Shown: positions 34,837 through 54,438 of the stretch, in pieces | How the letters are laid out: each line of letters begins with the position of its first letter | Position numbering within the stretch: position 1 is the stretch's first letter | From: Porticoccaceae bacterium | Lineage (GTDB): Bacteria; Pseudomonadota; Gammaproteobacteria; Pseudomonadales; Porticoccaceae | DNA: 64,000 nt | Assembly (NCBI GenBank): GCA_049890135.1 | Contig: JBMHCB010000006.1 | Location: forward strand, 47,607-111,606 | Direction: 5' to 3' | The notes under the pieces: model-generated | The model's input: the letters and a program-made list of their open reading frames with translations, nothing else | Told to the model about the DNA's origin: nothing | Database searches by the model: none | Program-made: the position numbers and the translations under genes

Positions 34837-34913
34837 CGGGGCGTAGCGCAGCCTGGTAGCGCACTACACTGGGGGTGTAGTGGTCGCAGGTTCAAATCCT
34901 GCCGTCCCGACCA
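34837..34913 (+). tRNA. tRNA-Pro (anticodon GGG)
   Basis: I folded the cloverleaf by hand. The acceptor CGGGGCG pairs with CGTCCCG (one G-U), the anticodon stem is CTACA/TGTAG with loop CTGGGGG, the T-arm is GCAGG-TTCAAAT-CCTGC, and the 3' CCA is encoded. Confidence 0.9.
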
Positions 34914-34920: not shown

Positions 34921-34950
34921 AAAAAGGCCTTCCTTGTGGAGGCCTTTTTT
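34921..34950. terminator. Bidirectional terminator shared by tRNA-Pro and the convergent sulfatase gene
   Basis: AAAAAGGCCT (34921-34930), loop TCCTTGTGG, AGGCCTTTTT. The arms are perfectly complementary and A/T runs lie on both sides. Confidence 0.65.
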
Positions 34951-34987: not shown

Positions 34988-36427
34988 TTATAATGCCGGA
35001 TCGCTGGGGCACCGTCTATGAGAGAAGCCTTTGCGATCACACACAGCTAGCTCGCTTTTTATCCCCATATCACCTTGTTGATGCATCCATGTAGTTAGTT
35101 TTTGTTTTAACACAACCAGTTGTTTTTGATGCTGCGGCTGATTGATAATATTGATTCGTTCGAATGGGTCATTAACCATATCGTACAATTCATATTCTGG
35201 TCGTTGTAGATAGTTTGAAAAATTTTCTTTTCCCTGTTTTTTTTCAAGCGCAAGTTCTTCTTTAAACCATTTTCCTGCGGTTAAAATATTGGAGAAGCTA
35301 TTATTTGGCATTAAATTGTGGATTAGTTTAAGGCGTTTGGTGCGAACTGATCTTATGGGGTAGGGTGCTCCTTCATGAATGTTAAAGCTTGTTTGAATGC
35401 CATAAACATATTCTTTGTGTTCTGTTTTTTTGCCAATTAAAACCGATTTAAAGCTTTTTCCATCTAGATTTTTTGGCACTGTGTTACTCACTATATCAGT
35501 CAGTGTTGGAATGACGTCCACATATTCAATCATTGCGTTGCTGACGGAGTTTGGTTTTATATTATTTGGCCAGCGAACAATAAATGCTGTTTTTAGACCG
35601 TTGTCATAATTAGTCCACTTGGCAAATGGCAGAGCGCTGCCTTGCTCGCTGGTGAAAATAAAGATTGTGTCGTTTTTGATACCGAGTTTTTGAATTTCGG
35701 CTTCAAGCAAACCTACTTCGCGATCTAGGTCAGAGACTTCGGCAAGATATTTTGACAGTTGCTGACGCAGTGCTTTGGTATCATTTAAAAACTTTGGTAT
35801 CTGTAATTTATCCGGTGGATACTGCTTTGTATCTCCTCGACTCCAAGGGGTGTGGGGGTTTGCAGATGCAGCAACTAAGAAAAAGGGCTGAGTCTTATTT
35901 CGAGAGATAAATTTTCGGGTAGTTTCTATACCAAAGGAGGATTCTCCTGAGGCTTCTCTGTTTGGTTTGCCGACACGCTCAAATGGAAATGACTTTCCTG
36001 GAAAGATATGGCCCTTTCCAGCTAAGCCAACTCGATAGCCCAATGCTCTAAAGTAATGAGCGGCACTTTTTACCCCATCATAGACTCGAGTATGATTGCC
36101 GTAGGCCCCGTTGCGAATTGGGTAAATACCTGTATAAAGCTGCTGTCGGGTGACGCCACACATAGCTGTTGCGGTAAATGATTGGGTAAATAGCATGCCT
36201 TCTTTAGCTAGCTTATCAATATTAGGTGTAATGGCATTTTTAGGCGCATAGTCATAGAGTTGATGATAGGCGCCAATATCAAACCAATTTAAGTCATCGG
36301 CAAGAACAAGGATAATGTTGGGTGATTTGCTGGCTTCTGAGGGTTTTGCTGATAGAGAGTTATATGGCGTTAAAACAGCAATCAAAAGAAGTAAATTGGC
36401 CAATCTTTTTTGAAATTGATTCATCAT
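34988..36427 (-). CDS. S1-family sulfatase with an atypical CGVTR active-site motif
   Basis: 479 aa with a signal peptide, the metal-binding NIILVLADDL, and CGVTRQQLYTG in place of the canonical CxPxRxxxxTG. Confidence 0.88.
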   Translation of the reverse strand: MMNQFQKRLANLLLLIAVLTPYNSLSAKPSEASKSPNIILVLADDLNWFDIGAYHQLYDYAPKNAITPNIDKLAKEGMLFTQSFTATAMCGVTRQQLYTGIYPIRNGAYGNHTRVYDGVKSAAHYFRALGYRVGLAGKGHIFPGKSFPFERVGKPNREASGESSFGIETTRKFISRNKTQPFFLVAASANPHTPWSRGDTKQYPPDKLQIPKFLNDTKALRQQLSKYLAEVSDLDREVGLLEAEIQKLGIKNDTIFIFTSEQGSALPFAKWTNYDNGLKTAFIVRWPNNIKPNSVSNAMIEYVDVIPTLTDIVSNTVPKNLDGKSFKSVLIGKKTEHKEYVYGIQTSFNIHEGAPYPIRSVRTKRLKLIHNLMPNNSFSNILTAGKWFKEELALEKKQGKENFSNYLQRPEYELYDMVNDPFERINIINQPQHQKQLVVLKQKLTTWMHQQGDMGIKSELAVCDRKGFSHRRCPSDPAL

Positions 36428-36469
36428 CTTACTTCATATTAGTCAGGCACCTAAGATATAGGGGCTAGA

Positions 36470-37498
36470 CTATTTGAGTGTTTTAATTGATGTTGATTCG
36501 CGCATGATAATCTCAGTGGGAAGTAGTTCCATATTTGGATTTTCATCTGATTCCGCACGGCATTTTTCAATCAATATTTTTACCGCTGTCGCTGCCATTT
36601 CTTTGATCGGCTGACGAACAGTGGTCAGTTGAGGCCAGACAACAGTGGCTACTAAGCTATCGTCAAAACCAGCGATAGAGAGATCATCTGGTACTGAGAG
36701 TCCAGCTTTGTGAGCGGCGGCTATTAATGCTGCAGCCATTTCGTCATTGCTGGCAAAAATAGCGGTTGGTCGTTGGGGTTGCTTAAGCAGTTTTTCACCA
36801 GCAATTAGTGCAGATCGGTATTCAAAATTACCTTCCTGAATAAAGCTATCTGGAACGGACAGATTGGCGTCTTTCATCGCCGATAAAAATCCTTCTTGTC
36901 TTCGTCTGGTTGTTGCAGTTCCTTTGCGACCGGTAATAAAACCAATTGATGTATGGCCCAATTCAATCAGTTTTGTTGTCATTTCTTTTGCGGCTTGGTG
37001 GTCATTTATCTCAACACGAAGTCCCAGCTCCTCTGAGATACTTGGTGAGATTCTTGCAAATGGTTTACCCGCTGACATAAGGGCTTTCAGAATTGATGGC
37101 TCATCGCAGAGTGGGGGAGGCAGTATCATACCGTCTAAATTAGATTGAACTATAAGGTTATTAATGTCCTCTGTGATGGTGGCTGAGGATAAACTGACTG
37201 GCTCAACAATTAGGTGATAACCATCTTGCCGTGATTGCTCCATAGCTCCTTGTAATAACTCGACAATATAGCTTGCATTTGGGTTATCAAATATAAGGCC
37301 TAGCACATAGGAGCGAGAGCCAACAGCTGCTCTGGGTGCAACACTGGGTCGATAGTTTAGAGTTTTGATAGCTTCCTCAACCGCAGCTCTAGTTTTAGGG
37401 CTAACTTTTGGTTCCTTTCGGACCACACGTGAGGCAGTTTTAATGGAGACCTTTGCTAGTTTTGCTATATCACTAAGTGTTGATTTACTTTGGATCAT
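36470..37498 (-). CDS. LacI-family transcriptional regulator
   Basis: 342 aa with the N-terminal HTH STLSDIAKLAKVSIKTASRVV and a periplasmic-binding-protein-like sugar-binding core. It is divergent from the sulfatase at 37798. Confidence 0.9.
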   Translation of the reverse strand: MIQSKSTLSDIAKLAKVSIKTASRVVRKEPKVSPKTRAAVEEAIKTLNYRPSVAPRAAVGSRSYVLGLIFDNPNASYIVELLQGAMEQSRQDGYHLIVEPVSLSSATITEDINNLIVQSNLDGMILPPPLCDEPSILKALMSAGKPFARISPSISEELGLRVEINDHQAAKEMTTKLIELGHTSIGFITGRKGTATTRRRQEGFLSAMKDANLSVPDSFIQEGNFEYRSALIAGEKLLKQPQRPTAIFASNDEMAAALIAAAHKAGLSVPDDLSIAGFDDSLVATVVWPQLTTVRQPIKEMAATAVKILIEKCRAESDENPNMELLPTEIIMRESTSIKTLK

Positions 37499-37797
37499 TT
37501 CTTCCTCTGAATTTCTAAATATACACCAATAAAAAAACAGGTAGTTTTATTCGCTGTCTATTATGCAGTTATGTTCATTAAAATTAAAATTTAATAATAA
37601 TGTGAAGTGCTAATAATACATCAAGGTTCTTTTAGCGATTTTATTTGATAAATCTCGGTTGGCCATAAGGTTTCTAATTGCAGCGTTTGTAACTGCTGAT
37701 TTAGTATGATTAAACCCTAGATCCGCCTCTTTTCCCTTGATGATGACAATATAATCATTATAATCAAAAAATTAAATTTTAGGTAGGTCTTATTGCG

Positions 37798-39255
37798 ATG
37801 CAAAAGAATGTTATGGTTTTTGCGTTCTTGGTTTTGTCTGGGTTGCTGGTCAGTCTAGACCTGTATTCGGATATTCCGTTGCCTGCTAAAAAAAGTGATC
37901 GGCCGAATGTTTTATTTATTTCTGTCGATGATTTGCGCCCTGATATTGGTAGTTATGGTCATCCTGTTGCCAAAACTCCAAATTTGGATAACTTTTCTAA
38001 GTCTGCTGTGTTGTTTGAGCAAGCCTATACTCAACAGGCAGTTTGTGGTCCTTCTCGTGCTGCTTTGCTAACAGGATTAAGGCCCTCTACCACAGGGATT
38101 AAGCGTCTTGATCAAACTGTTTCAGGGACTTTGCCTAGCATTACAACAATGAATATGCTGTTTAAGCAAAGTGGTTATGAGACGGTATCTATTGGCAAAA
38201 TATACCATCATTTTAATGACGATGCCGATGGATGGTCTAAGCCGCCCTTTGATATTGCCTATGATGCTAGAAGAGACCGCAAAAAGCGCGGTTTGCCAAA
38301 TCCGCCTTATGATGTTTGGGCATCTGAAGAATTATTACCTGATGCTAAAAATGTTGCATATGCTGTCAATGAGCTTGAAAGGCTTAGTCGGCGAGATAAT
38401 CCTTTCTTTCTAGCCGTAGGCCTGCATCGTCCTCATCTACCTTTTAGAGCGCCTAAAAGTGATTGGGATAAATATGACCTAGAGAAGGTGCCATTGCCGA
38501 AAACAACAGAGCAGCAAATAGGTGCTCCAGATTGGGCGGTAGTTGCTTGGGAAATCTGGAACTATGATGACTTACCTCCAAAACCCGGCCCTATGCCGAA
38601 AGCAACAGGGGATCGGTTAAGGCATGGTTACCTAGCATCTGTTTCATTTGTTGATGGCTTGGTGGGACAGCTAATTGCAAAAATTTCGTCCTTAGGTTTG
38701 GATAAAAACACAGTCATTGTTATTTGGGGTGACCATGGGTTTAAGTTAGGTGATCATGGCGGTTGGTCTAAGCACTCAACAGTAGAGCTTGATATCCATA
38801 TTCCTCTAATAATTCGAGTGCCGGGCATGAAAACACCAGGTGCGCGAACGGATGCGCTGGTTGAAACGGTCGATATTTACCCAACACTTATTGATATTGC
38901 CGGCCTTGATCAACCACATGCTTTAGAGGGTATATCTTTAATGCCGCTTATTAATAAACCAGATCGTCCCTGGAAAGAAGCGGTTTTTGCTCAATTTCCT
39001 CGTTACGTTAAAAGACAGTTAGCAATGGGTGAGACTGTTCGAACTCATCGTTATCGATATACAGCATGGGTGGGAACTGCCAATGGCCAAATTATTGATC
39101 AAGAGCTTTATGATCATGAAAAAGATCCCATTGAATCGATAAATGTTGCTAAAAATACTGATTATCGTCTTGAGCTTGAGCGTCATGAAAAATTAAGAAA
39201 TGAGGGTTGGGGTAAGGTTCAAAAAGAATTGATAAAAAAGTTGACTCAAAAATAA
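37798..39255 (+). CDS. S1-family sulfatase (iduronate-2-sulfatase-like)
   Basis: 485 aa with a signal peptide, NVLFISVDDLR and the Cys-type motif CGPSRAALLTG. Confidence 0.9.
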   Translation: MQKNVMVFAFLVLSGLLVSLDLYSDIPLPAKKSDRPNVLFISVDDLRPDIGSYGHPVAKTPNLDNFSKSAVLFEQAYTQQAVCGPSRAALLTGLRPSTTGIKRLDQTVSGTLPSITTMNMLFKQSGYETVSIGKIYHHFNDDADGWSKPPFDIAYDARRDRKKRGLPNPPYDVWASEELLPDAKNVAYAVNELERLSRRDNPFFLAVGLHRPHLPFRAPKSDWDKYDLEKVPLPKTTEQQIGAPDWAVVAWEIWNYDDLPPKPGPMPKATGDRLRHGYLASVSFVDGLVGQLIAKISSLGLDKNTVIVIWGDHGFKLGDHGGWSKHSTVELDIHIPLIIRVPGMKTPGARTDALVETVDIYPTLIDIAGLDQPHALEGISLMPLINKPDRPWKEAVFAQFPRYVKRQLAMGETVRTHRYRYTAWVGTANGQIIDQELYDHEKDPIESINVAKNTDYRLELERHEKLRNEGWGKVQKELIKKLTQK

Positions 39256-39295
39256 ATTAATCATTTAAACCATTAAAAATAAGGAAGCTATAACA

Positions 39296-39682
39296 ATGAA
39301 AAAACATATTAAACTTTCCTGTCTTTTATTTGTTCCAATTGTCTGTACTGCCGAATCTAAAGAGGCCTGGCAAGCGTTCGATAAGAATAAGGATAATGCC
39401 TTAACCATAGCTGAATTCGCTAATTATAAAGCAGATCAATATGCTGATTTAGATGTGAGTGGTGATGGAAAATGGTCAAAATCAGAATTTGTTAAAGGGC
39501 TCAGAGATATGAAGGATATGGACCCACATTGGCTTAGAGAAAAATTTAGACGTTTTGATAAAGACGATAATGGTATTTTGACAATAGAAGAAGCTGAAAA
39601 AGAAATTGCAGTAAACTTTAAATGGTTAGATAAAGACAAGAGTAAAACAATTACTAAAAAAGAGATGCCAAAAAAGTTCTAG
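39296..39682 (+). CDS. Secreted four-EF-hand calcium-binding protein
   Basis: 128 aa with a signal peptide (LFVPIVCTAES) and four canonical 12-residue EF loops: DKNKDNALTIAE, DVSGDGKWSKSE, DKDDNGILTIEE and DKDKSKTITKKE. Confidence 0.8.
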   Translation: MKKHIKLSCLLFVPIVCTAESKEAWQAFDKNKDNALTIAEFANYKADQYADLDVSGDGKWSKSEFVKGLRDMKDMDPHWLREKFRRFDKDDNGILTIEEAEKEIAVNFKWLDKDKSKTITKKEMPKKF

Positions 39683-39721
39683 CTTCTTTTCAGGATACAA
39701 AAAAATAGTTGCTTAAACGAC

Positions 39722-39745
39722 CATAGTGACATTATTGTCACTATG
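39722..39745. repeat. 24-bp near-perfect inverted repeat (candidate operator or RNA hairpin) upstream of the TBDR operon
   Basis: CATAGTGACATTATTGTCACTATG has 11 of 12 symmetric pairs complementary. It lies 39 nt after the EF-hand stop and 207 nt before the TBDR ATG. No U-tract follows on either strand. Confidence 0.85.
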
Positions 39746-39952
39746 ATTGCAAGATGTTACTATTTAGCAGGAATTTAGTTTATCTATGCTTTTGCATGTT
39801 CAGGGCCAATATTTGTCTGTGAGGCTAAGCTAGTTAGAGTATGATCGACATCATAAGTCATTTCCGGAGAGGGGAGATTGCAACGGGGTATTGGGCTACT
39901 TAATCAATAAGTATGCTTTTGAATTACCGTTGTCAATAATTGGAGAAATATA

Positions 39953-42826
39953 ATGAAGTGCAATATCTCAAAGATTTTTATATCAATAATTACAACGTTT
40001 AGTCTTATCTTGTTGAGTACTTCTGCTATGTCAGAAGAAGCTAAGCAGGATGGCAAGATTGTTGATGAGTCTGTCGACGAGGTCATCGTATTTGGAATTC
40101 GTAGAAGTCTTGAAACTGCCCTAGAAGCAAAGCGTGAGATATCTAACTTAACCGAAGTCATTAATGCAGATGATATCGGTAAACTTCCCGATGAAAATAT
40201 CGCAGAGGTTCTTGAAAATATTCCTGGTGTGCAAATTGATCGATCGGGCGGTATCGGCTCTAATGTTTCTGTGCGTGGCAGTACCCAAAATCGGGTTGAG
40301 ATAAATGGTCGAAGCACCACGCCATCAAAAGATGCTCGCGGCGGCATAAGTTTCTCTGACTTGCCTTCTAGCTTAGTTCGCTCTCTTAATGTGGTAAAAG
40401 TACCAACAGCAGATATGGTTGAGGGGTCGCTTGGTGGTACGGTTAATGTTAAGACGTATCGTGGCCTTAAACTTAAGAAGCCTTTACGCGTTGTGCGTGG
40501 TGTTTCTGAATATGCGGAAAATGCTGATAAATGGAATGAGAACTTTTCTGGCACCTATGGGAATAAATTTTCGACAAGCAACGGCGATGTTGGCGTTATT
40601 TTGAATTTGTCACACTTTGATAAATTTGTTCGCGAAGACCAACTGCGTGTTACCCCGGGTATTCGTCAATCTTCACAGAGTGAGATTGATTTTGACGGTG
40701 ATGGAACTAATGACCCATATTATAAACCTGGTTTTAGTGATCTTGAATTTGGCTTGCAAAATCGTGTTAATACCGCCTTCTCTGGTTCTCTTGAGTGGCA
40801 AGTAGATAATAATTTCAAGCTATACAGCGAAGGGTCATTCACTGACTTAAACCAACAAAGTCTAAAGCAGTCTGCCTTTATTGGAACAGCGGCTTCAGAT
40901 ATCGAGCTAGATGATCCTAATGCTATATTTAAGATGGTTGAAGTTGCGGGCTATCCAGTGTCAATGCTTACATCTGGTATTGTTGGTGGCGGTATTAGAA
41001 ATGGTCGTGTTGACTTACCTTCTGATAATGCAGAGCCTAATGATGGGGTTCAAATTCGCTCTAATAACAAAGCGGGTAATCGTGATACTCAGTCTTATGT
41101 TGCAGCTATTGGTGGTGAGTGGGATACGGATAATTTGAATATTGTTGCTGAGTTGAGTGCTGCTGGCTCAGATTCAGTCGAAACAGCCTTTGTTACGGTT
41201 ATGCAGTTTAATGATCCCACTTCAGCAAATTTCCATAGTTTGGGTGCAAGATTACGCGTTCCTTTCTTCTACTCGCTTGATGGTGATGTTATAGAGTACG
41301 GCCCCTATGCCAATACTGTTAGTAGTGAGCAGCTACTTGATCCTAGTTATTGGTCTATGTATTTAACCAAGGATCAGGATTTCTTTTATAATAATAAAGA
41401 GCTTGCGCAAAAAGTTGATGCCACTTGGTTTGTAGATAATGATTTTTGGACAACCATTAAAGCGGGGGTTCGCTTAACTCAGCGATCGAGTGATAGATCG
41501 CGTCAATCACAGCAAACTCAACCTTGGCCAGGGTTTTCAGGAACAGATCTTGAAAACTACTTACTAGCCACTCCGGGTGATTTTTTTAGTTTCAATAATG
41601 ATGGAAGCTATTTAGATGATTTCCTCACGCTAGACCCCAAAAAGGTCCACAGACAACGCGATGAACTTCGCGAGATGTTCGCGCTGGATGAATCGGGGGT
41701 TATTGATCCGTTACAGGGTTTTGGAGTTGAAGAGGATACAGCCGCACTTTATGTTCGCGGTGACTTTGATGCGATGATTTTTGGTATAGAGGGAAGGGGG
41801 AATATTGGTATACGTGGCGTAAATACCGATCAGGTTGCCAGTGGCAGTGAAGTGATGCCAGACGGCTCCTTACGTGATGTCTCATACACACAAAATTATA
41901 CTAATTATCTGCCAAGTGCCAGTTTGGTTTTGGCGCCTAAAGAAAAAATTCAAATTAGATTTGGGTATGCCGACATTATGCGTCGTCCAAATTTTAGCGA
42001 TCTTTCACCTACGGTTCAGTACCCCCTCAATATCGGACAAGCGGTCAATGTAGGTGACCCCACGTTAAAGCCAACTAAGGCTAAACAATTTGACGCGACT
42101 TTAGAGTATTACTTCCGTAAGGGCAGTGTTGCAAGTCTGGGGTATTACCACAAGAAATTAGAAAGCGTTATTGGTAAGGAGACTAGATGGAACAGTATCT
42201 GTAATCCTCGAGCAGAAGACCCCTATGCGGATGTGCCTGAATTGGCCGCTATGACCTGTACTATTGATGGATTGGATGGTGTGATGGTGAATAGAATTTC
42301 ACCGGTAAACCTTCCAGGTGGCAGTATTGAAGGGTTAGAGTTGTCCTTTTTACATTACTTCCGCAATATACCCAAACCCTTTAGAGGTCTGGGTATTATT
42401 GCAAATTATGCCTATCAAAAGGGTGATCGCGACCAAACCTTTGCAACTCCTGCGTTTTTAAGAAATGATGGTGAGGCTCAAGAGTTTCCGCTTAACTTTG
42501 TACGACTATCTGAGAATTCTTACAACTTCACTGTTTTTTATGAAAGATACCGTTTGAATGCCCGCCTGAGATATACCTACCGAGATAATTTTTTGCTCTC
42601 GGAGTCCATTGATATAGCTAATGGTCAACCTCTATATACTGAGGACAGAGGACAGCTTAATGGCTCTCTATCTTACAAAATTGATAAAACATTTGCGGTT
42701 ACCTTAAGTGGCGTTAATCTTTTGAAATCACGCAAATCAAATCCGGGTGTTTTTGCTGAAGGACCACTCGCCAGAATGTCAGATTCCGATCGTAGAATAT
42801 CTTTAGGTTTGAGGGCGAAATTTTAG
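39953..42826 (+). CDS. TonB-dependent outer-membrane receptor
   Basis: 957 aa with a signal peptide, the TonB box DEVIVFG, a plug domain (NIPGVQIDRSGG...VSVRG), a long beta-barrel and a C-terminal ...LGLRAKF ending in Phe. A GGAG sits 8 nt upstream of the ATG. Confidence 0.92.
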   Translation: MKCNISKIFISIITTFSLILLSTSAMSEEAKQDGKIVDESVDEVIVFGIRRSLETALEAKREISNLTEVINADDIGKLPDENIAEVLENIPGVQIDRSGGIGSNVSVRGSTQNRVEINGRSTTPSKDARGGISFSDLPSSLVRSLNVVKVPTADMVEGSLGGTVNVKTYRGLKLKKPLRVVRGVSEYAENADKWNENFSGTYGNKFSTSNGDVGVILNLSHFDKFVREDQLRVTPGIRQSSQSEIDFDGDGTNDPYYKPGFSDLEFGLQNRVNTAFSGSLEWQVDNNFKLYSEGSFTDLNQQSLKQSAFIGTAASDIELDDPNAIFKMVEVAGYPVSMLTSGIVGGGIRNGRVDLPSDNAEPNDGVQIRSNNKAGNRDTQSYVAAIGGEWDTDNLNIVAELSAAGSDSVETAFVTVMQFNDPTSANFHSLGARLRVPFFYSLDGDVIEYGPYANTVSSEQLLDPSYWSMYLTKDQDFFYNNKELAQKVDATWFVDNDFWTTIKAGVRLTQRSSDRSRQSQQTQPWPGFSGTDLENYLLATPGDFFSFNNDGSYLDDFLTLDPKKVHRQRDELREMFALDESGVIDPLQGFGVEEDTAALYVRGDFDAMIFGIEGRGNIGIRGVNTDQVASGSEVMPDGSLRDVSYTQNYTNYLPSASLVLAPKEKIQIRFGYADIMRRPNFSDLSPTVQYPLNIGQAVNVGDPTLKPTKAKQFDATLEYYFRKGSVASLGYYHKKLESVIGKETRWNSICNPRAEDPYADVPELAAMTCTIDGLDGVMVNRISPVNLPGGSIEGLELSFLHYFRNIPKPFRGLGIIANYAYQKGDRDQTFATPAFLRNDGEAQEFPLNFVRLSENSYNFTVFYERYRLNARLRYTYRDNFLLSESIDIANGQPLYTEDRGQLNGSLSYKIDKTFAVTLSGVNLLKSRKSNPGVFAEGPLARMSDSDRRISLGLRAKF

Positions 42827-42827
42827 A

Positions 42828-44528
42828 ATGATGATTGAGTCGCAAACATTCTGGCGCTGTTTTAGGACGGTTTTTGTTGCTGGCATTATGCTGGTTTTCC
42901 ATTCTATCGCGATTTGCAAGCCAATAGATTATTTTGTCAGTTCGTCAGAAGGCAATGACAAAAATAACGGTCTGTCTGAAAATAGTCCTTGGGCCACCTT
43001 AAAAAGAGTTAAAAAACAAAAGTTGCAGCCTGGAGATACGGTTCACTTTAAATCAGGTGACTTGTTTAAAGGGCAGCTTGTGGTTGACGAGTCTGGAACT
43101 GTAGAGGCTCCAATTCACTTCACAGCTTATGGCGATGGTGATTTGCCCATTATTGATGGTGCCGCCTTAGTTAGAGGTGCTTCACTTGCGGCCATTTTAG
43201 TAATAGATCAGGATCACCTTGAATTTAGTAAATTGAATATAAGAAACTTTCGCAAAAAGTCACGTGATTCTGTATCAGATTATGATGCTTTTGGCATTCT
43301 TGTAAAGAATACAGGCAAGCGAAATTTACGCGGATATAACCTTCATGATCTAGTGGTTGAAGAGGTTTTTCCAGTAAGAGCAAGAGCAATTAACAATAAA
43401 TCTGGTGAAAATTCTTTTAATAAGACACAAGTTTCGGGTATTCGTTTTGAGACCCTTCCTATTACATCTATAGATCAAGCTTTTAATACTGGAGATATCT
43501 ACATTCATGGTAATTTCTTGCGCTATACCGCTAGGTTTGGTATCGCTATTCGTCACAGGTCGTCAAAAATTGAAAGCATTATTGGTACATCGGCAAATTA
43601 CGATACTAATGTTCGCATTATAAATAATCGCTGCGAAGATACTGGCGGCAGCTGTGTATTAATGAGTGGCGTTATGAATGGGCTTCTCGAAAAAAATAGC
43701 TTTATTCGTTCCGGCGCCATGGTTGAGCCGGAACTATCTGTCAATCGAGGCAGTGGTGCATGGTTCTTTGGCAGTAAAAATATTGTTGCTCAGAAAAATT
43801 TTTCTTATGGCTCTCGGGGGCATAATGATTCTGCAGGGATGCACGTTGATTATGGTAATGAGAATGTACTTGTTCAGTATAACTTCACACTGATGAATGA
43901 AGGTTATGGTACGGAAATTCTGGGTAAAAATAAGAATATTATTTGGCGGCATAATATTAGTGTTCATGATGGGACTAGAGTTGTTGGTGTTGCTCGGCCA
44001 GAAGGCGGCAAAAGTATATTTCCGGGTAAAACCATCCATGTGAGTAACTTTTCTGTTCCTAAGCGAATTAAATCAGAGGGTGTTTATATTTATAACAATA
44101 CCTATGTTATTGCCAGTGACTCAGAGCCATTAATTGGCTTTATAGGTAAGGATATGCATCTTTGGAATAATATTTTTGTGGTTGAGGATGGTGGCTTATT
44201 GGCCAAAAATCTTAAAGCCGGATGGTCTAGAAAAAAGGACTTGGAAATAAGGGGTAATGTTTTTTCTGGGAATATATCAAAGAACTTTATTGACTCTGAT
44301 TTAAGTTCAACAATTTCTAAGATTAAATTTGAAGGTAATATAGGTAGTCCAGCGACTTACGCAGTGGCCCCCTCGGCAATAAAAAGTAATCATGATTTAA
44401 AAATAAGTCATCCCCGTTTTCCTTCTGCTGGAAAGGGGATTTTTAAACATATTTCTGAAATACCACAATTCGATATATTTGGTAATGCTTTAGATTCTGA
44501 AATTGCCTCATATGGTGCAGGGTACTAA
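42828..44528 (+). CDS. Secreted right-handed parallel beta-helix repeat protein (unassigned; candidate glycan-active enzyme)
   Basis: 566 aa. After a hydrophobic leader, the N-terminus has YFVSSSEGNDKNNGLSENSPWATLKRV...LQPGDTVHFKSGD, which is typical of pectate-lyase-fold proteins. Then come repeated short N/G/I/V-rich coils (IINNRCEDTGG, NIVAQKNFSYG, NVLVQYNF, IIWRHNISVHDG, IYNNTY, LWNNIF). The ATG lies 1 nt after the TBDR stop. Confidence 0.72.
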   Translation: MMIESQTFWRCFRTVFVAGIMLVFHSIAICKPIDYFVSSSEGNDKNNGLSENSPWATLKRVKKQKLQPGDTVHFKSGDLFKGQLVVDESGTVEAPIHFTAYGDGDLPIIDGAALVRGASLAAILVIDQDHLEFSKLNIRNFRKKSRDSVSDYDAFGILVKNTGKRNLRGYNLHDLVVEEVFPVRARAINNKSGENSFNKTQVSGIRFETLPITSIDQAFNTGDIYIHGNFLRYTARFGIAIRHRSSKIESIIGTSANYDTNVRIINNRCEDTGGSCVLMSGVMNGLLEKNSFIRSGAMVEPELSVNRGSGAWFFGSKNIVAQKNFSYGSRGHNDSAGMHVDYGNENVLVQYNFTLMNEGYGTEILGKNKNIIWRHNISVHDGTRVVGVARPEGGKSIFPGKTIHVSNFSVPKRIKSEGVYIYNNTYVIASDSEPLIGFIGKDMHLWNNIFVVEDGGLLAKNLKAGWSRKKDLEIRGNVFSGNISKNFIDSDLSSTISKIKFEGNIGSPATYAVAPSAIKSNHDLKISHPRFPSAGKGIFKHISEIPQFDIFGNALDSEIASYGAGY

Positions 44529-44532
44529 GGCC

Positions 44533-46077
44533 ATGAATACAAGAAACAGCAGGGTTCAAGATATGCATACTCAAACGATGGCTTTGGGTTTTTTTCGTAG
44601 GCCTTCTTTAGTTATATGCCTAGCCCTAGTGGCTTTATTCATTGCGCTAGTGACAGCCTGTTCCTCAAAGCCTATGAGTAGTGTTGTTAAGGAGACTATA
44701 AAGTCACCTAATTTTATAGTTATCCTAGCCGATGATTTAGGCTGGAGTAGCTTATCTGCTTCGATGGATAAAAATTACCCAAACGCAAAGAGTGACTATC
44801 ATAAAACACCCAATATTGACGCCATAGTAGAAGGTGGTATGCGCTTTTCCAGTGGCTATGCTGCCGCTCCTGTTTGCTCTCCAACGCGTTACAGTATTCA
44901 ATTTGGTAAATCGCCTGCGCGCTTAAAGCGCACCAGGGTTTTGGGTAAGAGTCATGTTGATCACAATCAGGTTGGTATCCCCCAAGTGCTTAAATCTATC
45001 GATAAGTCTTATCGTGCCGCCCACATAGGTAAGTGGCATATCGACAAAGATCCATCTGCTTATGGTTATGACGTTCACGATGGTATGACTAAAAACAAAG
45101 AGGGTGATTTTGATAATAATCAGACTCAATGGCATGGTTATTCTGATGAGGATCCAAAGCGAGTCAATTCAATGACCAAGCGCGCTGTAGAATTTATGCG
45201 CGAATCAGTTGAGCGAGAACAACCTTTCTTTCTTCAGCTCTCTCATTATGCTGTGCACTCGAACATTGTATACAGCGATGCATCATACGCTGGAGTAGGG
45301 AAGCGCGATAAAGGTAAGTTGCATAAGAACCAAGGTTATGCGGCTATGTTAGAAGATATGGATTTATCCATTGGTTCTTTACTTGAGGCGTATACTGAGC
45401 TTGATCTTGCGAAAAACACCTATATCATTTTTCTTTCAGACAACGGTGGCATGCCAGTACTCCCAATGCAGGTCAACAGAGGTAGACCCTATCGTGACGG
45501 GCTAAACTCGCCGCTTCTTCGTGGCAAATGGGATCTTACGGAAGGTGGCATTCGGGTTCCATTTGCAATTACTGGACCTACTATTAAAGCCGGTGGACAA
45601 AGTGATACGCCGGTTATGAGTTATGATATTTTGCCTACCGTTGCTGACCTTGCTGGATCGCAGAAGGGGTTACCTAAAAACCTTGATGGGGTAAGTTTCA
45701 AGCCACTATTTGAAGATCATAAGGCAGATTTAAATCGTCCTTTTGATGGTCTTGTATTCCACTTTCCACATTACAACAGGGTAGGTATGAATGAGCCGCA
45801 TTCAGCAATTAGGTATAAAAATTTCAAGTTAATCCATTTTCCAGCCTCTGGCCGCAATTTACTCTTTGATCTAGCAAAGGACCCTGGTGAGCTTGTTGAT
45901 CTATCTAAAAAGATGCCAAAAATGGTTGAATCATTGAACATCAAGTTAGATGCCTATCTTACGTCAGTTGACGCCGAGTTACCTGAAGACGCTGGCAGTT
46001 GGAAGAGAGTAGGGAACAATGGAAAAGTGAGAACTAAATTTTTTAAACGCTATGACCGTATTTTACAGGACAAGTAA
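44533..46077 (+). CDS. S1-family sulfatase, predicted lipoprotein
   Basis: I chose the start at ATG 44533, 4 nt after the upstream stop and preceded by AAGG. It has the lipobox LVTAC, NFIVILADDLGW and the Cys-type motif CSPTRYSIQFG. Confidence 0.88.
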   Translation: MNTRNSRVQDMHTQTMALGFFRRPSLVICLALVALFIALVTACSSKPMSSVVKETIKSPNFIVILADDLGWSSLSASMDKNYPNAKSDYHKTPNIDAIVEGGMRFSSGYAAAPVCSPTRYSIQFGKSPARLKRTRVLGKSHVDHNQVGIPQVLKSIDKSYRAAHIGKWHIDKDPSAYGYDVHDGMTKNKEGDFDNNQTQWHGYSDEDPKRVNSMTKRAVEFMRESVEREQPFFLQLSHYAVHSNIVYSDASYAGVGKRDKGKLHKNQGYAAMLEDMDLSIGSLLEAYTELDLAKNTYIIFLSDNGGMPVLPMQVNRGRPYRDGLNSPLLRGKWDLTEGGIRVPFAITGPTIKAGGQSDTPVMSYDILPTVADLAGSQKGLPKNLDGVSFKPLFEDHKADLNRPFDGLVFHFPHYNRVGMNEPHSAIRYKNFKLIHFPASGRNLLFDLAKDPGELVDLSKKMPKMVESLNIKLDAYLTSVDAELPEDAGSWKRVGNNGKVRTKFFKRYDRILQDK

Positions 46078-46121
46078 AGCACACATAGTAAATATATAAC
46101 TTAAACAAGAATTTTAATTTT

Positions 46122-48437
46122 ATGAAAAATGTATATTCCCTATCAATACTGACTATTGGAATTTTCACTTCAATTATTTCGTATTCTTCAGAGCCCTACA
46201 AGAATCCTGATCTCTCTGATGGGGCCCGTGTTGATGATTTGCTGTCAAGAATGACACTAATCGAAAAAGTTGGGCAGATGTCACAGTTTGTCGGTCCCGA
46301 GCATATAGCCCGCTCAGAAAAAAATATGACCATTGAAGAAATGCAGGCTGGTGATACGTTTGGGATTTATCCGAATTTACACTCTTCCCAAATTCCAGAT
46401 GTTATTAAAAAAGGAAGGGTAGGATCGTTCTTGCATGTGAAAAATCCTAAAGAAGCTAATTTTCTTCAGAAGCATGCTATTCAAAGTCGCCTTGGAATTC
46501 CGCTTTTAATAGGTATTGATGCAATTCATGGTAATGGCTTAGTAAAAGGGGCGACAATATACCCATCGCCAATCACCATGGCTAGTAGTTGGAATCTTGA
46601 CCTTGTTGAGCAAGCCAGCATTCAAACTGCAAAAGAGGTGAGGGCAAACGGCGCTCACTGGGCGTTTACTCCAAATATTGACATTGCAAGAGATGCGCGC
46701 TGGGGAAGAGTGGGTGAAACCTTTGGCGAAGATAAATTTCTTGTCTCTGAAATGGGCGTTGCGGTTATTAATGGTTTACAGCAGGGCGATTTTTCAAGCG
46801 ATACCAGTGTTCTTGCAACAGCAAAGCACTTTGTAGCGGGTAGTGATCCAATAAATGGACTTAATTTATCGCCTATGGATGTGTCAATTCGGTCTCTGCG
46901 AGAGGATTATTTCCCGCCTTTTGAACGGGCAATTGATGCCGGCGTTTTCACTTTAATGGCAGCGCATAATGAGGTAAATGGTGTACCAGCTCATGGTAAT
47001 CGTTTTTTATTAACCGAAGTGCTTCGAGATGAATGGAATTTCAAAGGGTTCGTGGTGAGTGACTGGTTGGATGTTGAGCGATTAAAAACTTATCATCGGA
47101 CAGCGCCAACGTTTAAAGAAGCGGTTTATCAAAGTGTTGATGCGGGAATGGATATGCATATGCATGGGCCAAAATTTTTAATGCCACTTGTAAGGTTGGT
47201 AAAACAAGGTCGAATTCCTGAATCAAGAATAGACGATGCGGTAAGACCAATACTGTTGGCTAAGTTTCGTTTGGGACTTTTTGAGAACCCTTTTGTCGAT
47301 TTATCCGATGCCAAGAAGCTAATGTTCAATAAAGATCATAAGCAAACGGCACTTGAGCTCGCCAGACAAGGTATTGTATTGCTTAAAAACTCGGACAAAA
47401 TTCTGCCTTTATCCGATGAAAAGCGTATCTTTATTACCGGACCCAATGCTAATAATCATTCGATTATGGGTGACTGGGTATTGCCACAACCAGAAGAAAA
47501 CATCACCACCATTGTCGAGGGCCTAAAAGAGGTAGCTAAGAGTTCGACCAAGATCGATTATTTTGATTTAAAAGGTAGCGTAAGAAGGATTCATTCTGAA
47601 CAAATTTTGAAAGCGGCTAAAAAGGCTAAGTCTGCTGATGTAGCCATTGTGGTAGTAGGCAGCAACCCTTTGAGATATGACAGAAAGGGTAAAACATCTG
47701 GAGAAAATGTTGCTCGTAGTTCTATAGGACTATTTGGTAACCAATTAGAGTTGGTGAGGGCTATTCAGGCATCTGGAACACCAACGATCGTTGTTCTTAT
47801 TAATGGCAGACCTCTCGCAGAGCCTTGGATTGTTGAGAATGTTGACGCTCTGATTGAAGCTTGGGAACCGGGTGCAATGGGCGGTAAAGCCTTAGCAGAA
47901 ATTGTATTTGGTGATGTTAATCCCAGCGGAAAACTACCGATTACAGTTCCATACAGTGTTGGGCATATGCAGGCTATTTATAATCATAAACCAAGCGCTT
48001 TAGTCAGAAAATATGCAGATGCACCTACTCATAACCTCTATGAATTTGGATATGGCTTAAGTTATTCTGAGTTTGAATATAATAATGTCAGATTATCCAA
48101 GTCTAAGATTGAAAATAATGAATCAACACAGCTTTTTGTGACTGTCAAAAATACAAGCCAGTATGCGGGTGATGAAATTGTTCAGCTCTATATTCGCGAC
48201 AAATTTTCACAAGTCACAAGACCTGTGAAAGAGTTAAAAGGATTTAAGCGAATATCATTAAAACCCGGTGAAGAGCGTGTGGTAAATTTTGCTATTACTC
48301 CAGATATGCTTGCCTATTATAATTTGAAGATGAATTGGGTTACAGAGCCTGGCGATTTTAGAATTATGGTTGGCGGTTCGTCTCGTAAAAGCGATTTAAA
48401 ATCAGTTAAGCTAAAAGTTAAAAAAACTAACAACTAG
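46122..48437 (+). CDS. Glycoside hydrolase family 3 (BglX-like beta-glycosidase)
   Basis: 771 aa with a signal peptide, LIEKVGQM, IDAIHGN, the nucleophile motif GFVVSDW and a C-terminal fibronectin-like domain. Confidence 0.92.
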   Translation: MKNVYSLSILTIGIFTSIISYSSEPYKNPDLSDGARVDDLLSRMTLIEKVGQMSQFVGPEHIARSEKNMTIEEMQAGDTFGIYPNLHSSQIPDVIKKGRVGSFLHVKNPKEANFLQKHAIQSRLGIPLLIGIDAIHGNGLVKGATIYPSPITMASSWNLDLVEQASIQTAKEVRANGAHWAFTPNIDIARDARWGRVGETFGEDKFLVSEMGVAVINGLQQGDFSSDTSVLATAKHFVAGSDPINGLNLSPMDVSIRSLREDYFPPFERAIDAGVFTLMAAHNEVNGVPAHGNRFLLTEVLRDEWNFKGFVVSDWLDVERLKTYHRTAPTFKEAVYQSVDAGMDMHMHGPKFLMPLVRLVKQGRIPESRIDDAVRPILLAKFRLGLFENPFVDLSDAKKLMFNKDHKQTALELARQGIVLLKNSDKILPLSDEKRIFITGPNANNHSIMGDWVLPQPEENITTIVEGLKEVAKSSTKIDYFDLKGSVRRIHSEQILKAAKKAKSADVAIVVVGSNPLRYDRKGKTSGENVARSSIGLFGNQLELVRAIQASGTPTIVVLINGRPLAEPWIVENVDALIEAWEPGAMGGKALAEIVFGDVNPSGKLPITVPYSVGHMQAIYNHKPSALVRKYADAPTHNLYEFGYGLSYSEFEYNNVRLSKSKIENNESTQLFVTVKNTSQYAGDEIVQLYIRDKFSQVTRPVKELKGFKRISLKPGEERVVNFAITPDMLAYYNLKMNWVTEPGDFRIMVGGSSRKSDLKSVKLKVKKTNN

Positions 48438-48491
48438 GAATCAGTCACAAAGTATTGAGTTCCCTTATTAATAAAAAAGGAAGAAAAAGAA

Positions 48492-50099
48492 ATGCATATA
48501 TTTTCCTCAACACATAAAAGTTGGACTAAAGTGATAAAATTCATATTAGCCATTGTTTGTGCTAATTCTCTATTATTTTTCGCTAGCAATTCGGTTGCTA
48601 AAGAGCCACTTAATGTCATTTATATCCTAACGGATGATCAAAGATACGACGCTTTGGGTTTTATGAACCCTGAAGTTGATACGCCACATATGGATAAACT
48701 TGCAGAAAGAGGTGTGCATTTCAAAAATAGCTTTGTGACAACAGCACTTTGTTCGCCAAGTCGAGCGTCTATTTTAACTGGGCAATATATGCATACCCAT
48801 GGGGTGGTTGATAATAACAAGCCAGCTAAGGAAGGAACCATCTACTTCCCAAGTTACTTACAGCAGGTTGGTTATGAAACCGCTTTCTTTGGTAAATGGC
48901 ATATGGGCGGTCATCACGATGATCCTCAGCCTGGCTTTGATCATTGGCTTAGTTTTGCTGGTCAGGGAGATTATTATCCTGTCCGTAAGCATGGTGGCGG
49001 ATTCAGTCGTTTTAATATCAATGGTAAGCGTGTTAAGCAAAAAGGTTACATAACAGATGAGCTTACAGACTATACATTGCAGTGGCTAACTGCCGAGCGA
49101 GATAGCAGAAAACCTTTCTTTGTGTATCTATCACACAAAGCAGTTCATGCCAATTTTGATCCGGCCAAGCGCCATAAAGACCAATACAGTGATGTTGAAA
49201 TTAAAGTACCTGCTAGTCAGGCCGATACCCCAGAAAATTACAAAGGCAAACCAATGTGGGTTAAAAATCAGCGCAATAGCTGGCATGGCGTTGATTTCCC
49301 TTACCACAGTGACTTAAATGTTACTGAATATAAGCGGCAATATAACCGCGCCCTTTCAGCAGTAGATGACAGTCTTGGTAGAATTACAGCTTGGTTGAAA
49401 GCCAATAACCTTGATCACAATACAGCAGTAATTCTTATGGGTGATAATGGCTTCTTATTCGGTGAACATGGGCTGATTGACAAGCGAAATGCTTACGAGG
49501 AATCTATGCGTGTTCCTCTGGTTGCTTACATACCGGGCGCCAAGCAAAATTATGTTGTTGAAGAGATGGCCGCTAATATTGATATTGCGCCTACGATTCT
49601 TGATATCGCAGGTATCAAGGAGCAACCGCCACAATTTGTTGGTTCGAGCTTATTACCACTAGCCAAGGGTGAAGTCGTTAATGATTGGCGCGATAATCTA
49701 CTCTATGAATATTATTGGGAATTTAACTTTCCGCATACGCCAACAACATTAGCTATTCGCTCGGATGATTTTAAGCTAATTCAATATCATGGTGTATGGG
49801 ACACGGATGAGCTTTTTGATTTAAAAAATGATCCTAAAGAAATGAATAACCTTATCGATGATCCTCGCTATTTAAAAATTAAAGTTGAATTGCGCAAGGC
49901 TTTGTTTGCTCGTTTAGCTGAAGATGGTGAGCATTCTGTTCCCTATACAAAGAAATTTAGTCGCGGTGCGGTGTTGCGTCATGGCGATCGTTCAAAAGCT
50001 GCCGAATTTCCAGATGATTGGTTGCGACAAGGGAATGAAAAGGATCTGAGAAAGTTTTTCACGCCTGATGATAGGCGATTAAAGCGCGGTAATGATTAG
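48492..50099 (+). CDS. S1-family sulfatase (N-acetylglucosamine-6-sulfatase-like)
   Basis: 535 aa with a signal peptide, NVIYILTDDQRYD and the Cys-type motif CSPSRASILTG. Confidence 0.9.
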   Translation: MHIFSSTHKSWTKVIKFILAIVCANSLLFFASNSVAKEPLNVIYILTDDQRYDALGFMNPEVDTPHMDKLAERGVHFKNSFVTTALCSPSRASILTGQYMHTHGVVDNNKPAKEGTIYFPSYLQQVGYETAFFGKWHMGGHHDDPQPGFDHWLSFAGQGDYYPVRKHGGGFSRFNINGKRVKQKGYITDELTDYTLQWLTAERDSRKPFFVYLSHKAVHANFDPAKRHKDQYSDVEIKVPASQADTPENYKGKPMWVKNQRNSWHGVDFPYHSDLNVTEYKRQYNRALSAVDDSLGRITAWLKANNLDHNTAVILMGDNGFLFGEHGLIDKRNAYEESMRVPLVAYIPGAKQNYVVEEMAANIDIAPTILDIAGIKEQPPQFVGSSLLPLAKGEVVNDWRDNLLYEYYWEFNFPHTPTTLAIRSDDFKLIQYHGVWDTDELFDLKNDPKEMNNLIDDPRYLKIKVELRKALFARLAEDGEHSVPYTKKFSRGAVLRHGDRSKAAEFPDDWLRQGNEKDLRKFFTPDDRRLKRGND

Positions 50100-50139
50100 G
50101 ACGATTCTTTTTAGGGTCATCCTTAAATAGGGGAATCTT

Positions 50140-51102
50140 ATGAAATCACCATTTAAGCTTACGTTAGTAATTACGGTTACTGCTTTTTCTGCTGGTTGCA
50201 GTAAAAATATTGAGCCTATGGTGTGTTTATCCGATTTAGATGCCGCCGCTACACAAGATATTAATGGTGGTCAGTTTAGTTTTGGCGAAAATCGATATTA
50301 TGCCAATGAGAAACCGGTCCAATTAATTGAGGTTAAAGATTTTAATATTGATCGTGCAGAAGTGACTAATCGGGAGTTTCAAGCGTTTGTTGAAGCCACC
50401 GGTTATGTGACTGATGCAGAACGAGGTCTTTCTGAAAAAGAGTTTCCAAATGTACCAGCAGAATTTCGTGTTCCAGGTTCAATGGTGTTTGTTTCGCCAG
50501 ATTCCGAACAAAAAAATGCATCTGCTTGGTGGCAGTTTATAGCCGGTGCTAACTGGCGACATCCCTTAGGACCAAATAGCTCTATTGACGGCAAAGATGC
50601 TTTCCCTGTAGTTCAAGTGACCTATGATGATGCCTTAGCCTATGCCAATTGGATTGGACGAAGATTGCCCACTGAAGCGGAGTGGGAGTATGCATCCAGA
50701 GGTGGATTAGAGCGTGCATCATATTCATGGGGAGAAGAACCACCTCATCAAGGTATATCCAAAGCCAATACTTGGCAGGGAAATTTCCCTTTCAATAATA
50801 TGAAAGAAGATGGCTTTGTGGGTAGTTCGCCTGTTGGTTGTTTTCCTGCAAATGGATATGGTTTGTATGATATGACAGGAAATGTATGGGAATGGACTGA
50901 AACTGCCTATGGTCCCGATCATCAAAGAGATTATGGTCAGAAGGGCTATGACCCTCTACAACCAGGCATAGAAGTAAAAACCCTGAAAGGCGGGTCTTTT
51001 TTATGTTCAGATAACTACTGTCAGCGTTTCCGTCCTGCATCTAGGCAGGGACAGGATCTTACTGTTGCCACATCACATATAGGCTTTAGGACCGCAAAAT
51101 AG
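50140..51102 (+). CDS. Formylglycine-generating enzyme (SUMF1/FGE family), predicted lipoprotein
   Basis: 320 aa with the lipobox FSAGC, the motifs RLPTEAEWEYASRGG and GNVWEWT, and the catalytic Cys pair in GGSFLCSDNYCQRFRPASR. Confidence 0.9.
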   Translation: MKSPFKLTLVITVTAFSAGCSKNIEPMVCLSDLDAAATQDINGGQFSFGENRYYANEKPVQLIEVKDFNIDRAEVTNREFQAFVEATGYVTDAERGLSEKEFPNVPAEFRVPGSMVFVSPDSEQKNASAWWQFIAGANWRHPLGPNSSIDGKDAFPVVQVTYDDALAYANWIGRRLPTEAEWEYASRGGLERASYSWGEEPPHQGISKANTWQGNFPFNNMKEDGFVGSSPVGCFPANGYGLYDMTGNVWEWTETAYGPDHQRDYGQKGYDPLQPGIEVKTLKGGSFLCSDNYCQRFRPASRQGQDLTVATSHIGFRTAK

Positions 51103-54365: not shown

Positions 54366-54438
54366 AGTAGTAATCGTCGCTTACTGTTAACCATTGATTT
54401 TATTGATGATTCATATAGCAATAGCTATGGAGAAAAAA

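Follow-up and report, generated by a model that had tools for sequence, protein, structure and literature searches.

A conserved LacI-linked locus with a GH136-like beta-helix protein in a Porticoccaceae genome, probably for the use of a sulfated glycan

The 64-kb stretch of DNA analyzed here (contig JBMHCB010000006.1, positions 47,607 to 111,606; hereafter the window) comes from a Porticoccaceae bacterium and carries an island of genes for sulfatases, glycoside hydrolases (GHs) and a TonB-dependent receptor (TBDR). We regard this locus as a TBDR-centered regulon resembling a polysaccharide utilization locus (PUL), most likely for the use of a multiply sulfated, beta-linked glycan or oligosaccharide. 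The initial annotation had listed ten genes between positions 34988 and 51102: four exported Cys-type sulfatases (here A to D), a formylglycine-generating enzyme (FGE) with a two-Cys motif, a 957-aa TBDR, a GH3 enzyme with the nucleophile motif GFVVSDW, an unassigned beta-helix protein, a LacI repressor divergent from the sulfatase gene at 37798, and a secreted protein with four EF-hands. Coordinates, translations and motifs of the open reading frames (ORFs) were checked against this list, and all ten genes are found at the same coordinates in the ORF list and in the Pfam and NCBIfam scans (Table 1). Every quoted motif (CGVTR, CGPSR, CSPTR and CSPSR in the sulfatases, GGSFLCSDNYCQRFR in the FGE, GFVVSDW in the GH3 protein) is present in the translations. 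The assignments were upheld for the sulfatases (PF00884 and motifs), the FGE (PF03781), the TBDR (plug, barrel and TIGR01782), the GH3 enzyme, the LacI repressor and the EF-hand protein.

The beta-helix protein can now be described as GH136-like. Its sequence is that of NCBI MGC6480838.1, found in a metagenome-assembled genome (MAG) of a Porticoccaceae bacterium, a gammaproteobacterium among the SAR92-related plankton. A phmmer search of the PDB matched it to GH136 lacto-N-biosidases (E = 6e-16) over two stretches that include the catalytic region, and the protein opens directly with the beta-helix, its residues 34 to 110 aligning with residues 246 to 322 of 6kqs. The AlphaFold2 (AF2) model, calculated with 37 homologs as input, has a pLDDT of 91.6 and a pTM of 0.90; its six best Foldseek matches are all GH136 structures (E = 5e-20 to 4e-14, TM = 0.53-0.67), followed by the GH120 enzyme XylC (4e-8) and by lyases at 5e-7 or worse. 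In the HMMER alignment D334 and D341 pair with D568 and D575, the sole Asp-x6-Asp of ErLnb136, where D568 is the acid/base and D575 the nucleophile (PMC7335108). Both residues and the intervening H339 are invariant in the 37 homologs, at identities down to 30%. Fold, sequence matches and the invariant Asp pair together argue for a second, probably retaining glycoside hydrolase in the locus, so that the hydrolase candidates are now two, the GH3 enzyme and the GH136-like protein, where only one classifiable GH had been counted before. The protein is termed GH136-like and is not a proven member of GH136. The NCBIfam LnbX model matches residues 33 to 109 only (57.6 bits vs a cut-off of 2500), and Pfam gives only a generic Beta_helix match under its cut-off. 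In a library clustered at 50% identity, 157 sequences represent a marine clade of such enzymes at E <= 1e-30.

Species-representative genomes were scanned with the beta-helix alignment, which gave 78 loci whose ORFs were compared with the window proteins. Loci L001 to L037 are for the most part labeled as Cellvibrionales-type MAGs and single-amplified genomes (Porticoccaceae/SAR92, UBA7375 and Halieaceae/OM60); a few labels are broader or odd. Within this set the TBDR gene immediately precedes the beta-helix gene in 26 of the 29 loci with enough sequence, and an S1_16 sulfatase gene immediately follows it in 24 of 32. The other members occur at varying frequency (S1_11 in 21 loci, GH3 in 18, LacI in 17, EF-hand protein in 14, S1_7 in 11, S1_8 in 10 and FGE in 3), and about 35 Cellvibrionales loci keep the core of TBDR, GH136-like enzyme, S1_16, GH3 and S1_11 in synteny. 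In Halieaceae a single operon holds all four sulfatase genes. Over all 78 loci, which span several phyla, sulfatases neighbor the beta-helix family in 52; in Bacteroidota and Balneolales the locus often includes a GH2 beta-galactosidase, SusC, hybrid two-component system regulators and sodium:solute symporter family transporters as well, GH2 beta-galactosidases being present in six loci outside the Gammaproteobacteria.

These comparisons also bear on the claim that the locus has neither a sugar transporter nor catabolic genes. It holds for the window, where the remaining genes are housekeeping genes. As a feature of the system the missing inner-membrane transporter does not stand, since six related gammaproteobacterial loci encode a major facilitator superfamily (MFS) transporter; that of L011, the only one scanned, is a GluP glucose/galactose transporter (400 bits vs a cut-off of 202) and lies directly behind an operator. 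Its absence here is a feature of the gene arrangement in this genome. In one Cellvibrionales clade (L006, L008 and L012) the first 5 kb, for example positions 496-4964 of L008, hold a further operon behind an operator, with a PEP-CTERM/VPLPA-CTERM protein (246 aa), a 568-aa protein and a second GH136-like paralog (~33% identical), to which L012 adds an MFS transporter. The 568-aa protein, as well as a 368-aa protein in L013 and a 658-aa protein in L010, had no Pfam, NCBIfam or PDB match, and each may represent a new enzyme acting in the same pathway.

The LacI-family repressor reached no NCBIfam equivalog cut-off, and its presumed operators could be followed across the related loci. A position weight matrix (PWM) was learnt from 11 related-locus sites only, the window sites being excluded, and was then run on the window; the palindrome ATGACA-N4-TGTCAT marks exactly three promoters in 64 kb, at the sites O1 (TGATGACAATATAATCATTA), O2 (TAGTGACATTATTGTCACTA) and O3 (GAATGACAATAATGTCTTTT). 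The three are outliers with 24.6 (O2), 20.6 (O1) and 18.6 bits (O3), the next site in the window scoring 10.8; in shuffled controls the best score had a mean of 11.6 and a maximum of 19.2. According to a promoter scan, each overlaps a predicted sigma-70 promoter: O1 sits between the predicted -35 (37737) and -10 (37759-37764) elements, O2, whose perfect palindrome TAGTGACAttatTGTCACTA is unique in the window, overlaps the predicted -35 (TTGTCA, 39735) of the TBDR operon, and O3 overlaps the predicted -35 of a minus-strand promoter at 53890..53863. Orthologous sites were found for O1 in L001-L003, L016 and L031, and for O2 upstream of the TBDR gene in L002 and L035.

In the related loci the operator occurs between the lacI and sulfatase genes and in front of both the TBDR gene and the S1_11/EF-hand operon, with further sites before gluP in L011 and 69 nt upstream of the homolog of an 845-aa protein in L002. 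The operator variant tracks the LacI clade, reading ATGACAATATTGTCAT where LacI identity is 50-88% and TGACAGCGCTGTCA where it is ~37%. From the sites in the window, the regulon is predicted to comprise lacI-sulfatase A, sulfatase B-EF-hand, TBDR-to-FGE and the gene for the 845-aa protein, the last being included on account of the common operator O3. The boundaries 34988-51102 given by the initial annotation therefore appear too narrow; with this gene the predicted regulon would reach ~53901, an extension of about 2.8 kb.

Table 1. Features of the island and its borders, in window coordinates
Feature	Position	Strand	Evidence or remarks
tRNA-Pro(GGG)	34837..34913	+	Left border of island, context only; ARAGORN, Rfam
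Terminator-like hairpin, 12-pair stem	34921..34949		Between tRNA-Pro and 3' end of sulfatase A gene
Exported S1 sulfatase A, S1_8-like, CGVTR	34988..36427	-	PF00884, E = 2e-37
LacI-family repressor	36470..37498	-	PF00356 + PF13377; 42 nt upstream of sulfatase A gene, same strand
Operator O1	37741..37760		lacI/sulfatase B divergent region; PWM second best in 64 kb
Exported S1 sulfatase B, S1_7-like	37798..39255	+	PF00884, E = 8e-48
Secreted 128-aa protein, four EF-hand loops	39296..39682	+	PF13405, PF00036, PF13499
Operator O2	39724..39743		Upstream of TBDR gene; PWM best in 64 kb
TBDR, 957 aa, first gene of operon	39953..42826	+	PF07715 + PF00593; TIGR01782
Exported GH136-like right-handed beta-helix hydrolase (putative), 566 aa	42828..44528	+	Predicted acid/base D334, nucleophile D341
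Lipoprotein-type S1 sulfatase C, S1_16-like	44533..46077	+	PF00884; start 44503, 44533 or 44578
Exported GH3, exo-beta-xylosidase/beta-glucosidase, BglX type (predicted)	46122..48437	+	PF00933 + PF01915 + Fn3-like
Exported S1 sulfatase D, S1_11-like	48492..50099	+	PF00884, E = 1e-58
FGE, lipoprotein-like signal	50140..51102	+	PF03781, 253 bits, residues 40-320
Terminator-like hairpin, 12-pair stem	51209..51236		Between FGE gene and convergent 845-aa gene
Secreted 845-aa protein, four tandem beta-sandwich (carbohydrate-binding-module-like) modules	51287..53824	-	AF2, Foldseek, operator O3
Operator O3	53882..53901		58 nt upstream of 845-aa gene; PWM third best in 64 kb

All four sulfatases match PF00884 (E = 1e-37 to 1e-58) and carry the maturation motif, and the exported proteins of the cluster each begin with a hydrophobic signal sequence in their translations. 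The best PDB matches of sulfatase A are S1_8A of the lambda-carrageenan cascade (9bb9, E = 9e-41) and human SGSH (4mhx), from which a 2-O/2-N regioselectivity is predicted. The S1_8 enzymes of that cascade are reported to include exo-Gal-2-sulfate 2-O-sulfohydrolases (PMC12549532), and the SulfAtlas specificities are 2-O/2-N for S1_8, 6-O for S1_11 and mixed for S1_7 (PMC9825549). In the motif MCGVTRQQLYTG of sulfatase A a Val replaces the canonical Pro/Ala at position 3 (C-x-P/A-x-R), a deviation kept in the orthologs (CGVTR, CSVAR and CAVTR, with one CAATR); such a Cys-x-Val-x-Arg sequence raises the question of how efficiently an FGE converts it. Sulfatase B is closest to 6hhm, labeled 'Arylsulfatase' (E = 1e-89), and to iduronate-2-sulfatase (5fql, E = 2e-65); we take 6hhm to be the S1_7 enzyme of the Formosa ulvan PUL. 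The closest solved relative of sulfatase C is 9fo1, 'k-carrageenan sulfatase S1_16' (E = 2e-66), which makes it a predicted Gal-4-O-sulfatase, S1_16 being taken, in line with the PDB label, as specific for Gal-4-sulfate. Its translation start may be the TTG at 44503 given by the ORF finder, the ATG at 44533 or the ATG at 44578, and the operon picture is the same with each. Sulfatase D, with a mucin-desulfating sulfatase (7p24, E = 1e-77) and a GlcNAc-6-sulfatase (5g2v) as best matches, is a predicted 6-O-sulfatase. Lipobox-like sequences are present in sulfatase C (VTAC) and in the FGE (SAGC). The latter, whose C-terminal motif includes LCSDNYCQRFR with the catalytic Cys pair, is predicted to be the maturase for the four Cys-type sulfatases.

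The TBDR contains plug and barrel domains and scores 500 bits with TIGR01782 (NCBIfam cut-off 310), which we take to be the proteobacterial Xanthomonas/Caulobacter-type receptor class; it is not of the SusC type. No SusD is encoded beside the TBDR gene, so that the susC/susD pair of a canonical Bacteroidota PUL is missing, and the locus functions like a PUL without being one in the strict sense. That it is "SusD-less" had been held to be an oddity; in a gammaproteobacterium such as this Porticoccaceae host, a TBDR with no SusD beside it is to be expected. The gaps of 1, 4, 44, 54 and 40 nt between the genes from TBDR to FGE were reproduced, provided that sulfatase C starts at the ATG at 44533, and the proposal of a single transcript over 39953-51102 agrees with the operon-like layout. 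The only strong terminator-like hairpins found flank the cluster on both sides, none comparable occurring within this stretch. The leader from operator O2 and its promoter to the TBDR start codon (39744-39952) is unusually long at ~190 nt; an Rfam scan gave two tRNAs only and no riboswitch in this leader. A 216-aa ORF with a GTG start (39904-40554, minus strand), antisense in the 5' part of the TBDR gene, is of low complexity and very likely not a gene.

For the GH3 protein the domain scores are 237 bits (PF00933) and 183 bits (PF01915), with an Fn3-like domain in addition. The NCBIfam models for BglX, beta-xylosidase and exo-1,3/1,6-glucosidase reach 550-577 bits, each under its own cut-off, and the best PDB matches are the beta-xylosidases 7zb3 and 8c7f (E = 1e-145), beta-glucosidases matching too. 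The gene for the EF-hand protein is kept next to an S1_7 or S1_11 sulfatase gene in the related loci that have it. A reading as lanmodulin was rejected, the likeness being weak (46.7 bits vs a cut-off of 135); its loops presumably lack the characteristic proline of lanmodulin. Candidate roles are the supply of calcium to the sulfatases, the loosening of Ca-bridged anionic gels, or that of a partner of the GH136-like enzyme.

In the AF2 model of the 845-aa protein, residues ~40 to 525 form four modules with pLDDT > 90, and the C-terminal half is modeled poorly. The modules gave only weak, generic beta-sandwich matches with Foldseek (a CBM22 tandem, discoidin and Cry-type jelly rolls), and the protein had no sequence match in the PDB. 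Homologs of the repeat module are fused to a GH catalytic core, CBM6, CBM48 or type IX secretion system tails. The C-terminal third consists of thrombospondin-type Asp-rich, calcium-type repeats (DSDNDG..., DTDNDG..., DTDDDGDG...) followed by two dockerin-like repeats (D.DNDGNADALTDGLLLLRY...), repeats that Pfam does not recognize. The protein is a candidate surface glycan-capture protein. In Halieaceae a protein with Big_2 and Lcl_C domains precedes the TBDR gene, and Lcl_C-domain proteins occur upstream of the TBDR gene in nine loci. Lcl is reported to be an adhesin recognizing sulfated glycosaminoglycans (GAGs; PMC11162425), and the Halieaceae protein may stand in place of the glycan-capture protein.

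Upstream the cluster is neighbored by thrS, pheST, a MerR-family gene and tRNA-Pro(GGG), the tRNA gene lying directly before the island and being itself preceded by pheST and the MerR-family gene. A MerR-family gene and tRNA-Pro(GGG) (positions 1510-1586 of L010) also adjoin the version of the cluster in the divergent relative L010, where the beta-helix protein is 60% identical and the layout is different; this suggests an old or recurrent insertion site. Further upstream are a Bat-like operon (16886-23729, minus strand; MoxR AAA ATPase, DUF58 protein, VWA proteins, TPR protein and BatD), transhydrogenase genes and others. Downstream follows a zinc-homeostasis cluster, probably for zinc uptake (54394-60943), with ZrgA, a Fur-family (Zur-like) regulator, a PTPS-like protein, a CobW-family GTPase, a DUF3299 protein and a MacB-like ABC transporter.

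From the observed gene identities, fold and catalytic residues, synteny and operator distribution we infer a scheme of localization, order of action, regioselectivities, inducer and substrate. LacI would occupy the operators until a breakdown product builds up, and induction would then follow. The secreted protein with the four modules would capture the polymer at the cell surface and the TBDR would bring oligosaccharides into the periplasm, where exo-sulfatases of the S1_16 (4-O), S1_11 (6-O) and S1_7/S1_8 (2-O) types, matured by the FGE lipoprotein, would free the non-reducing end of sulfate. Cleavage by the GH136-like retaining hydrolase, which probably releases a mono- or disaccharide, could then alternate with that by the GH3 exo-beta-xylosidase/glucosidase. 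Neutral hexose would finally enter the cell via a transporter encoded elsewhere, the GluP glucose/galactose MFS transporter lying inside the regulon in relatives. The substrate would be a 2-O/4-O/6-O-sulfated, beta-linked glycan with Gal/Glc/Xyl units. Because of the enzyme set, of GluP and of the GH2 enzymes in relatives, units of Gal-4-sulfate and Glc(NAc)-6-sulfate are suggested, together with Xyl-2-sulfate in the lineages with S1_7 and S1_8.

The GH136-like enzyme is probably functionally new. A narrower proposal, tentative and a good deal less secure than the scheme as a whole, is that the marine clade represents a new exo-acting "biosidase" or hydrolase activity for an undescribed 4-O/6-O-sulfated beta-galacto/gluco-glycan from phytoplankton, working without an LnbY-type partner and perhaps with the co-conserved secreted EF-hand protein instead.

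Several points weigh against the reading as a regulon for sulfated-glycan use. The locus contains no clearly endo-acting enzyme. The sulfatase subfamilies were assigned via the nearest solved structures and not via SulfAtlas HMMs, and regioselectivity varies inside S1_7 (PMC9825549). Identity between the beta-helix protein and GH136 enzymes is as low as ~20%; those known require a GH136-I/LnbY partner (PMC7335108, PMC8106489), which is neither fused to it nor recognized among the island genes in the Pfam and NCBIfam scans, a direct search with an LnbY sequence or model not being part of these. The score of operator O3 is one that the best shuffle also attained, and the proposed mechanism assigns no role to the EF-hand protein.

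In place of a polysaccharide from algae or phytoplankton, the same machinery could serve an animal-type substrate, which we consider rather unlikely; candidates are mucin O-glycans and keratan-like or GAG-like chains in the mucus of zooplankton, fish or jellyfish. Lacto-N-biose-type units in milk and mucin glycans are indeed the target of GH136 enzymes (PMC7335108, PMC10154618), the best matches of sulfatase D are mucin and GlcNAc-6-sulfatases, sulfatases A and B also resemble the lysosomal SGSH and IDS, and the Lcl_C domains of related loci belong to a family described as binding sulfated GAGs. However, GH20, GH29, GH33, GH84, GH88 and GAG lyases are found in none of the loci examined, and the GH3 enzyme is of the xylosidase/glucosidase and not the NagZ type. 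For sulfatases A, B and C, the solved structures that come closest are of algal-glycan enzymes from the ulvan, kappa-carrageenan and lambda-carrageenan pathways, and the transporter of the relatives (L011) is GluP above its cut-off, with NagP far below its own.

It is far less likely still that the beta-helix protein is not a glycoside hydrolase at all and acts as a polysaccharide lyase (PL) or as a non-catalytic binding or tailspike-like protein, leaving the GH3 enzyme as sole hydrolase. The beta-helix fold is indeed common to PL1, PL6 and PL9 lyases and to phage tailspikes, Foldseek returned PL6 and PL9 structures at E = 5e-7 to 1e-4, and the Pfam match is generic. On the other hand, the GH136 structures are 12 orders of magnitude ahead of any lyase, the GH136 sequence matches are significant, and the catalytic Asp pair is aligned and invariant in homologs of low identity. 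Hardly credible is a chance neighborhood or, in place of nutrient uptake, a function in sulfur scavenging or in recycling a sulfated exopolymer made by the cell itself. The window without catabolic or transporter genes and the PEP-CTERM surface proteins in related loci would fit it; however, synteny in about 35 genomes and the common operator favor one functional unit, the TonB-dependent importer, joined in relatives by one for hexoses, speaks for uptake, and sulfate is not limiting in seawater.

Algal sulfated glycans are a large and slowly degraded marine carbon pool, and the known degradation pathways come mostly from Bacteroidota and a few cultured Gammaproteobacteria. What the present locus adds is a compact and conserved set of genes, delimited by its regulator, from uncultured plankton of the Porticoccaceae and Halieaceae. 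Its central hydrolase appears to be a distant relative of a family whose members known to date are all gut lacto-N-biosidases. With the operator motif and the conserved gene core, the regulon can be sought in metagenomes, its induction can be followed in metatranscriptomes, and a small group of enzymes can be chosen for biochemical work on the substrate. If the GH136-like activity is indeed new, the TBDR/GH136-like/S1_16/GH3/S1_11 regulon would mark a widespread, chemically unrecognized marine sulfated polysaccharide eaten by SAR92 and OM60/NOR5 bacterioplankton.

Among known systems, the GH136 lacto-N-biosidases (B. longum LnbX, 5gqc; E. ramulus ErLnb136, 6kqs; T. nexilis TnX, 7v6m) share with the beta-helix protein the right-handed beta-helix (TM about 0.65) and the Asp-x6-Asp pair, and by analogy a retaining mechanism is expected for it as well. 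Unlike them, it shows little sequence identity, has no recognizable LnbY partner and would be exported in a Gram-negative marine bacterium. As the TBDR and S1_16 genes flank the beta-helix gene, the substrate is probably a sulfated marine glycan and not a milk or mucin type-1 chain. In the literature searched, no paper links GH136 with SAR92, Porticoccaceae, Halieaceae or a sulfated marine substrate, and a paper on North Sea Gammaproteobacteria does not describe the cluster. A similar "enigmatic GH136 + sulfatase PUL" was reported from Winogradskyella, its authors naming no substrate; it is likewise marine and has GH136-annotated enzymes clustered with sulfatases, a likeness by description. 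The Winogradskyella PUL is a Bacteroidota system with SusC/SusD, whereas the present locus is gammaproteobacterial, LacI-regulated by prediction and has a TBDR only.

A direct match to the ulvan, carrageenan, porphyran and GAG PULs was rejected, their diagnostic lyases and GHs being missing here. The likeness to the ulvan PUL of Formosa agariphila runs through sulfatase B, with 6hhm as its best solved relative. A GH3 beta-xylosidase takes part in the ulvan cascade too, as does an S1_25 rhamnose-3-sulfatase. Xylose-2-sulfate sulfatases of S1_7 and S1_8 are listed for ulvan (PMC9825549). Unlike the Formosa PUL, however, the present locus lacks ulvan lyases, GH78, GH88, GH105 and an S1_25-type sulfatase and contains S1_16, S1_11 and the GH136-like enzyme, and it is therefore not an ulvan locus. 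The Pseudoalteromonas carrageenan loci are gammaproteobacterial PULs as well, and among solved structures it is their S1_8 2-O-sulfatases that come nearest to sulfatase A. The lambda-carrageenan CarPUL of P. distincta U2A is reported to work by cyclic exo-desulfation and exo-hydrolysis to galactose, with 10 GHs (GH110B being named) and S1_15, none of which is present in our locus (PMC12549532). The missing lambda-carrageenan GHs and S1_15 imply a different backbone. In agreement with the initial annotation, which could match substrate and pathway to no nameable PUL, no characterized PUL with the same gene set was found in the literature searched.

In general architecture, the carbohydrate utilization loci containing TBDRs (CUT loci) of Xanthomonas and Caulobacter come close, as do the Pseudoalteromonas carrageenan loci. 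The CUT loci combine TIGR01782 TBDRs, periplasmic GHs and LacI regulators with palindromic operators, some with an MFS importer inside, and target sucrose, xylan, maltodextrin or GlcNAc. The present locus has the same TBDR/LacI architecture; the CUT loci are not known to contain sulfatases, an FGE or a GH136-like enzyme. The locus is thus less odd than was held, with SusD absence expected, a second GH present and a transporter in relatives. The view of a coherent PUL-like locus for a sulfated glycan is upheld by gene identities, synteny and operators: it is a real, coherent and, by its operators, regulated system, most likely for a sulfated glycan, and an uncharacterized relative of the known TBDR/LacI and PUL systems.

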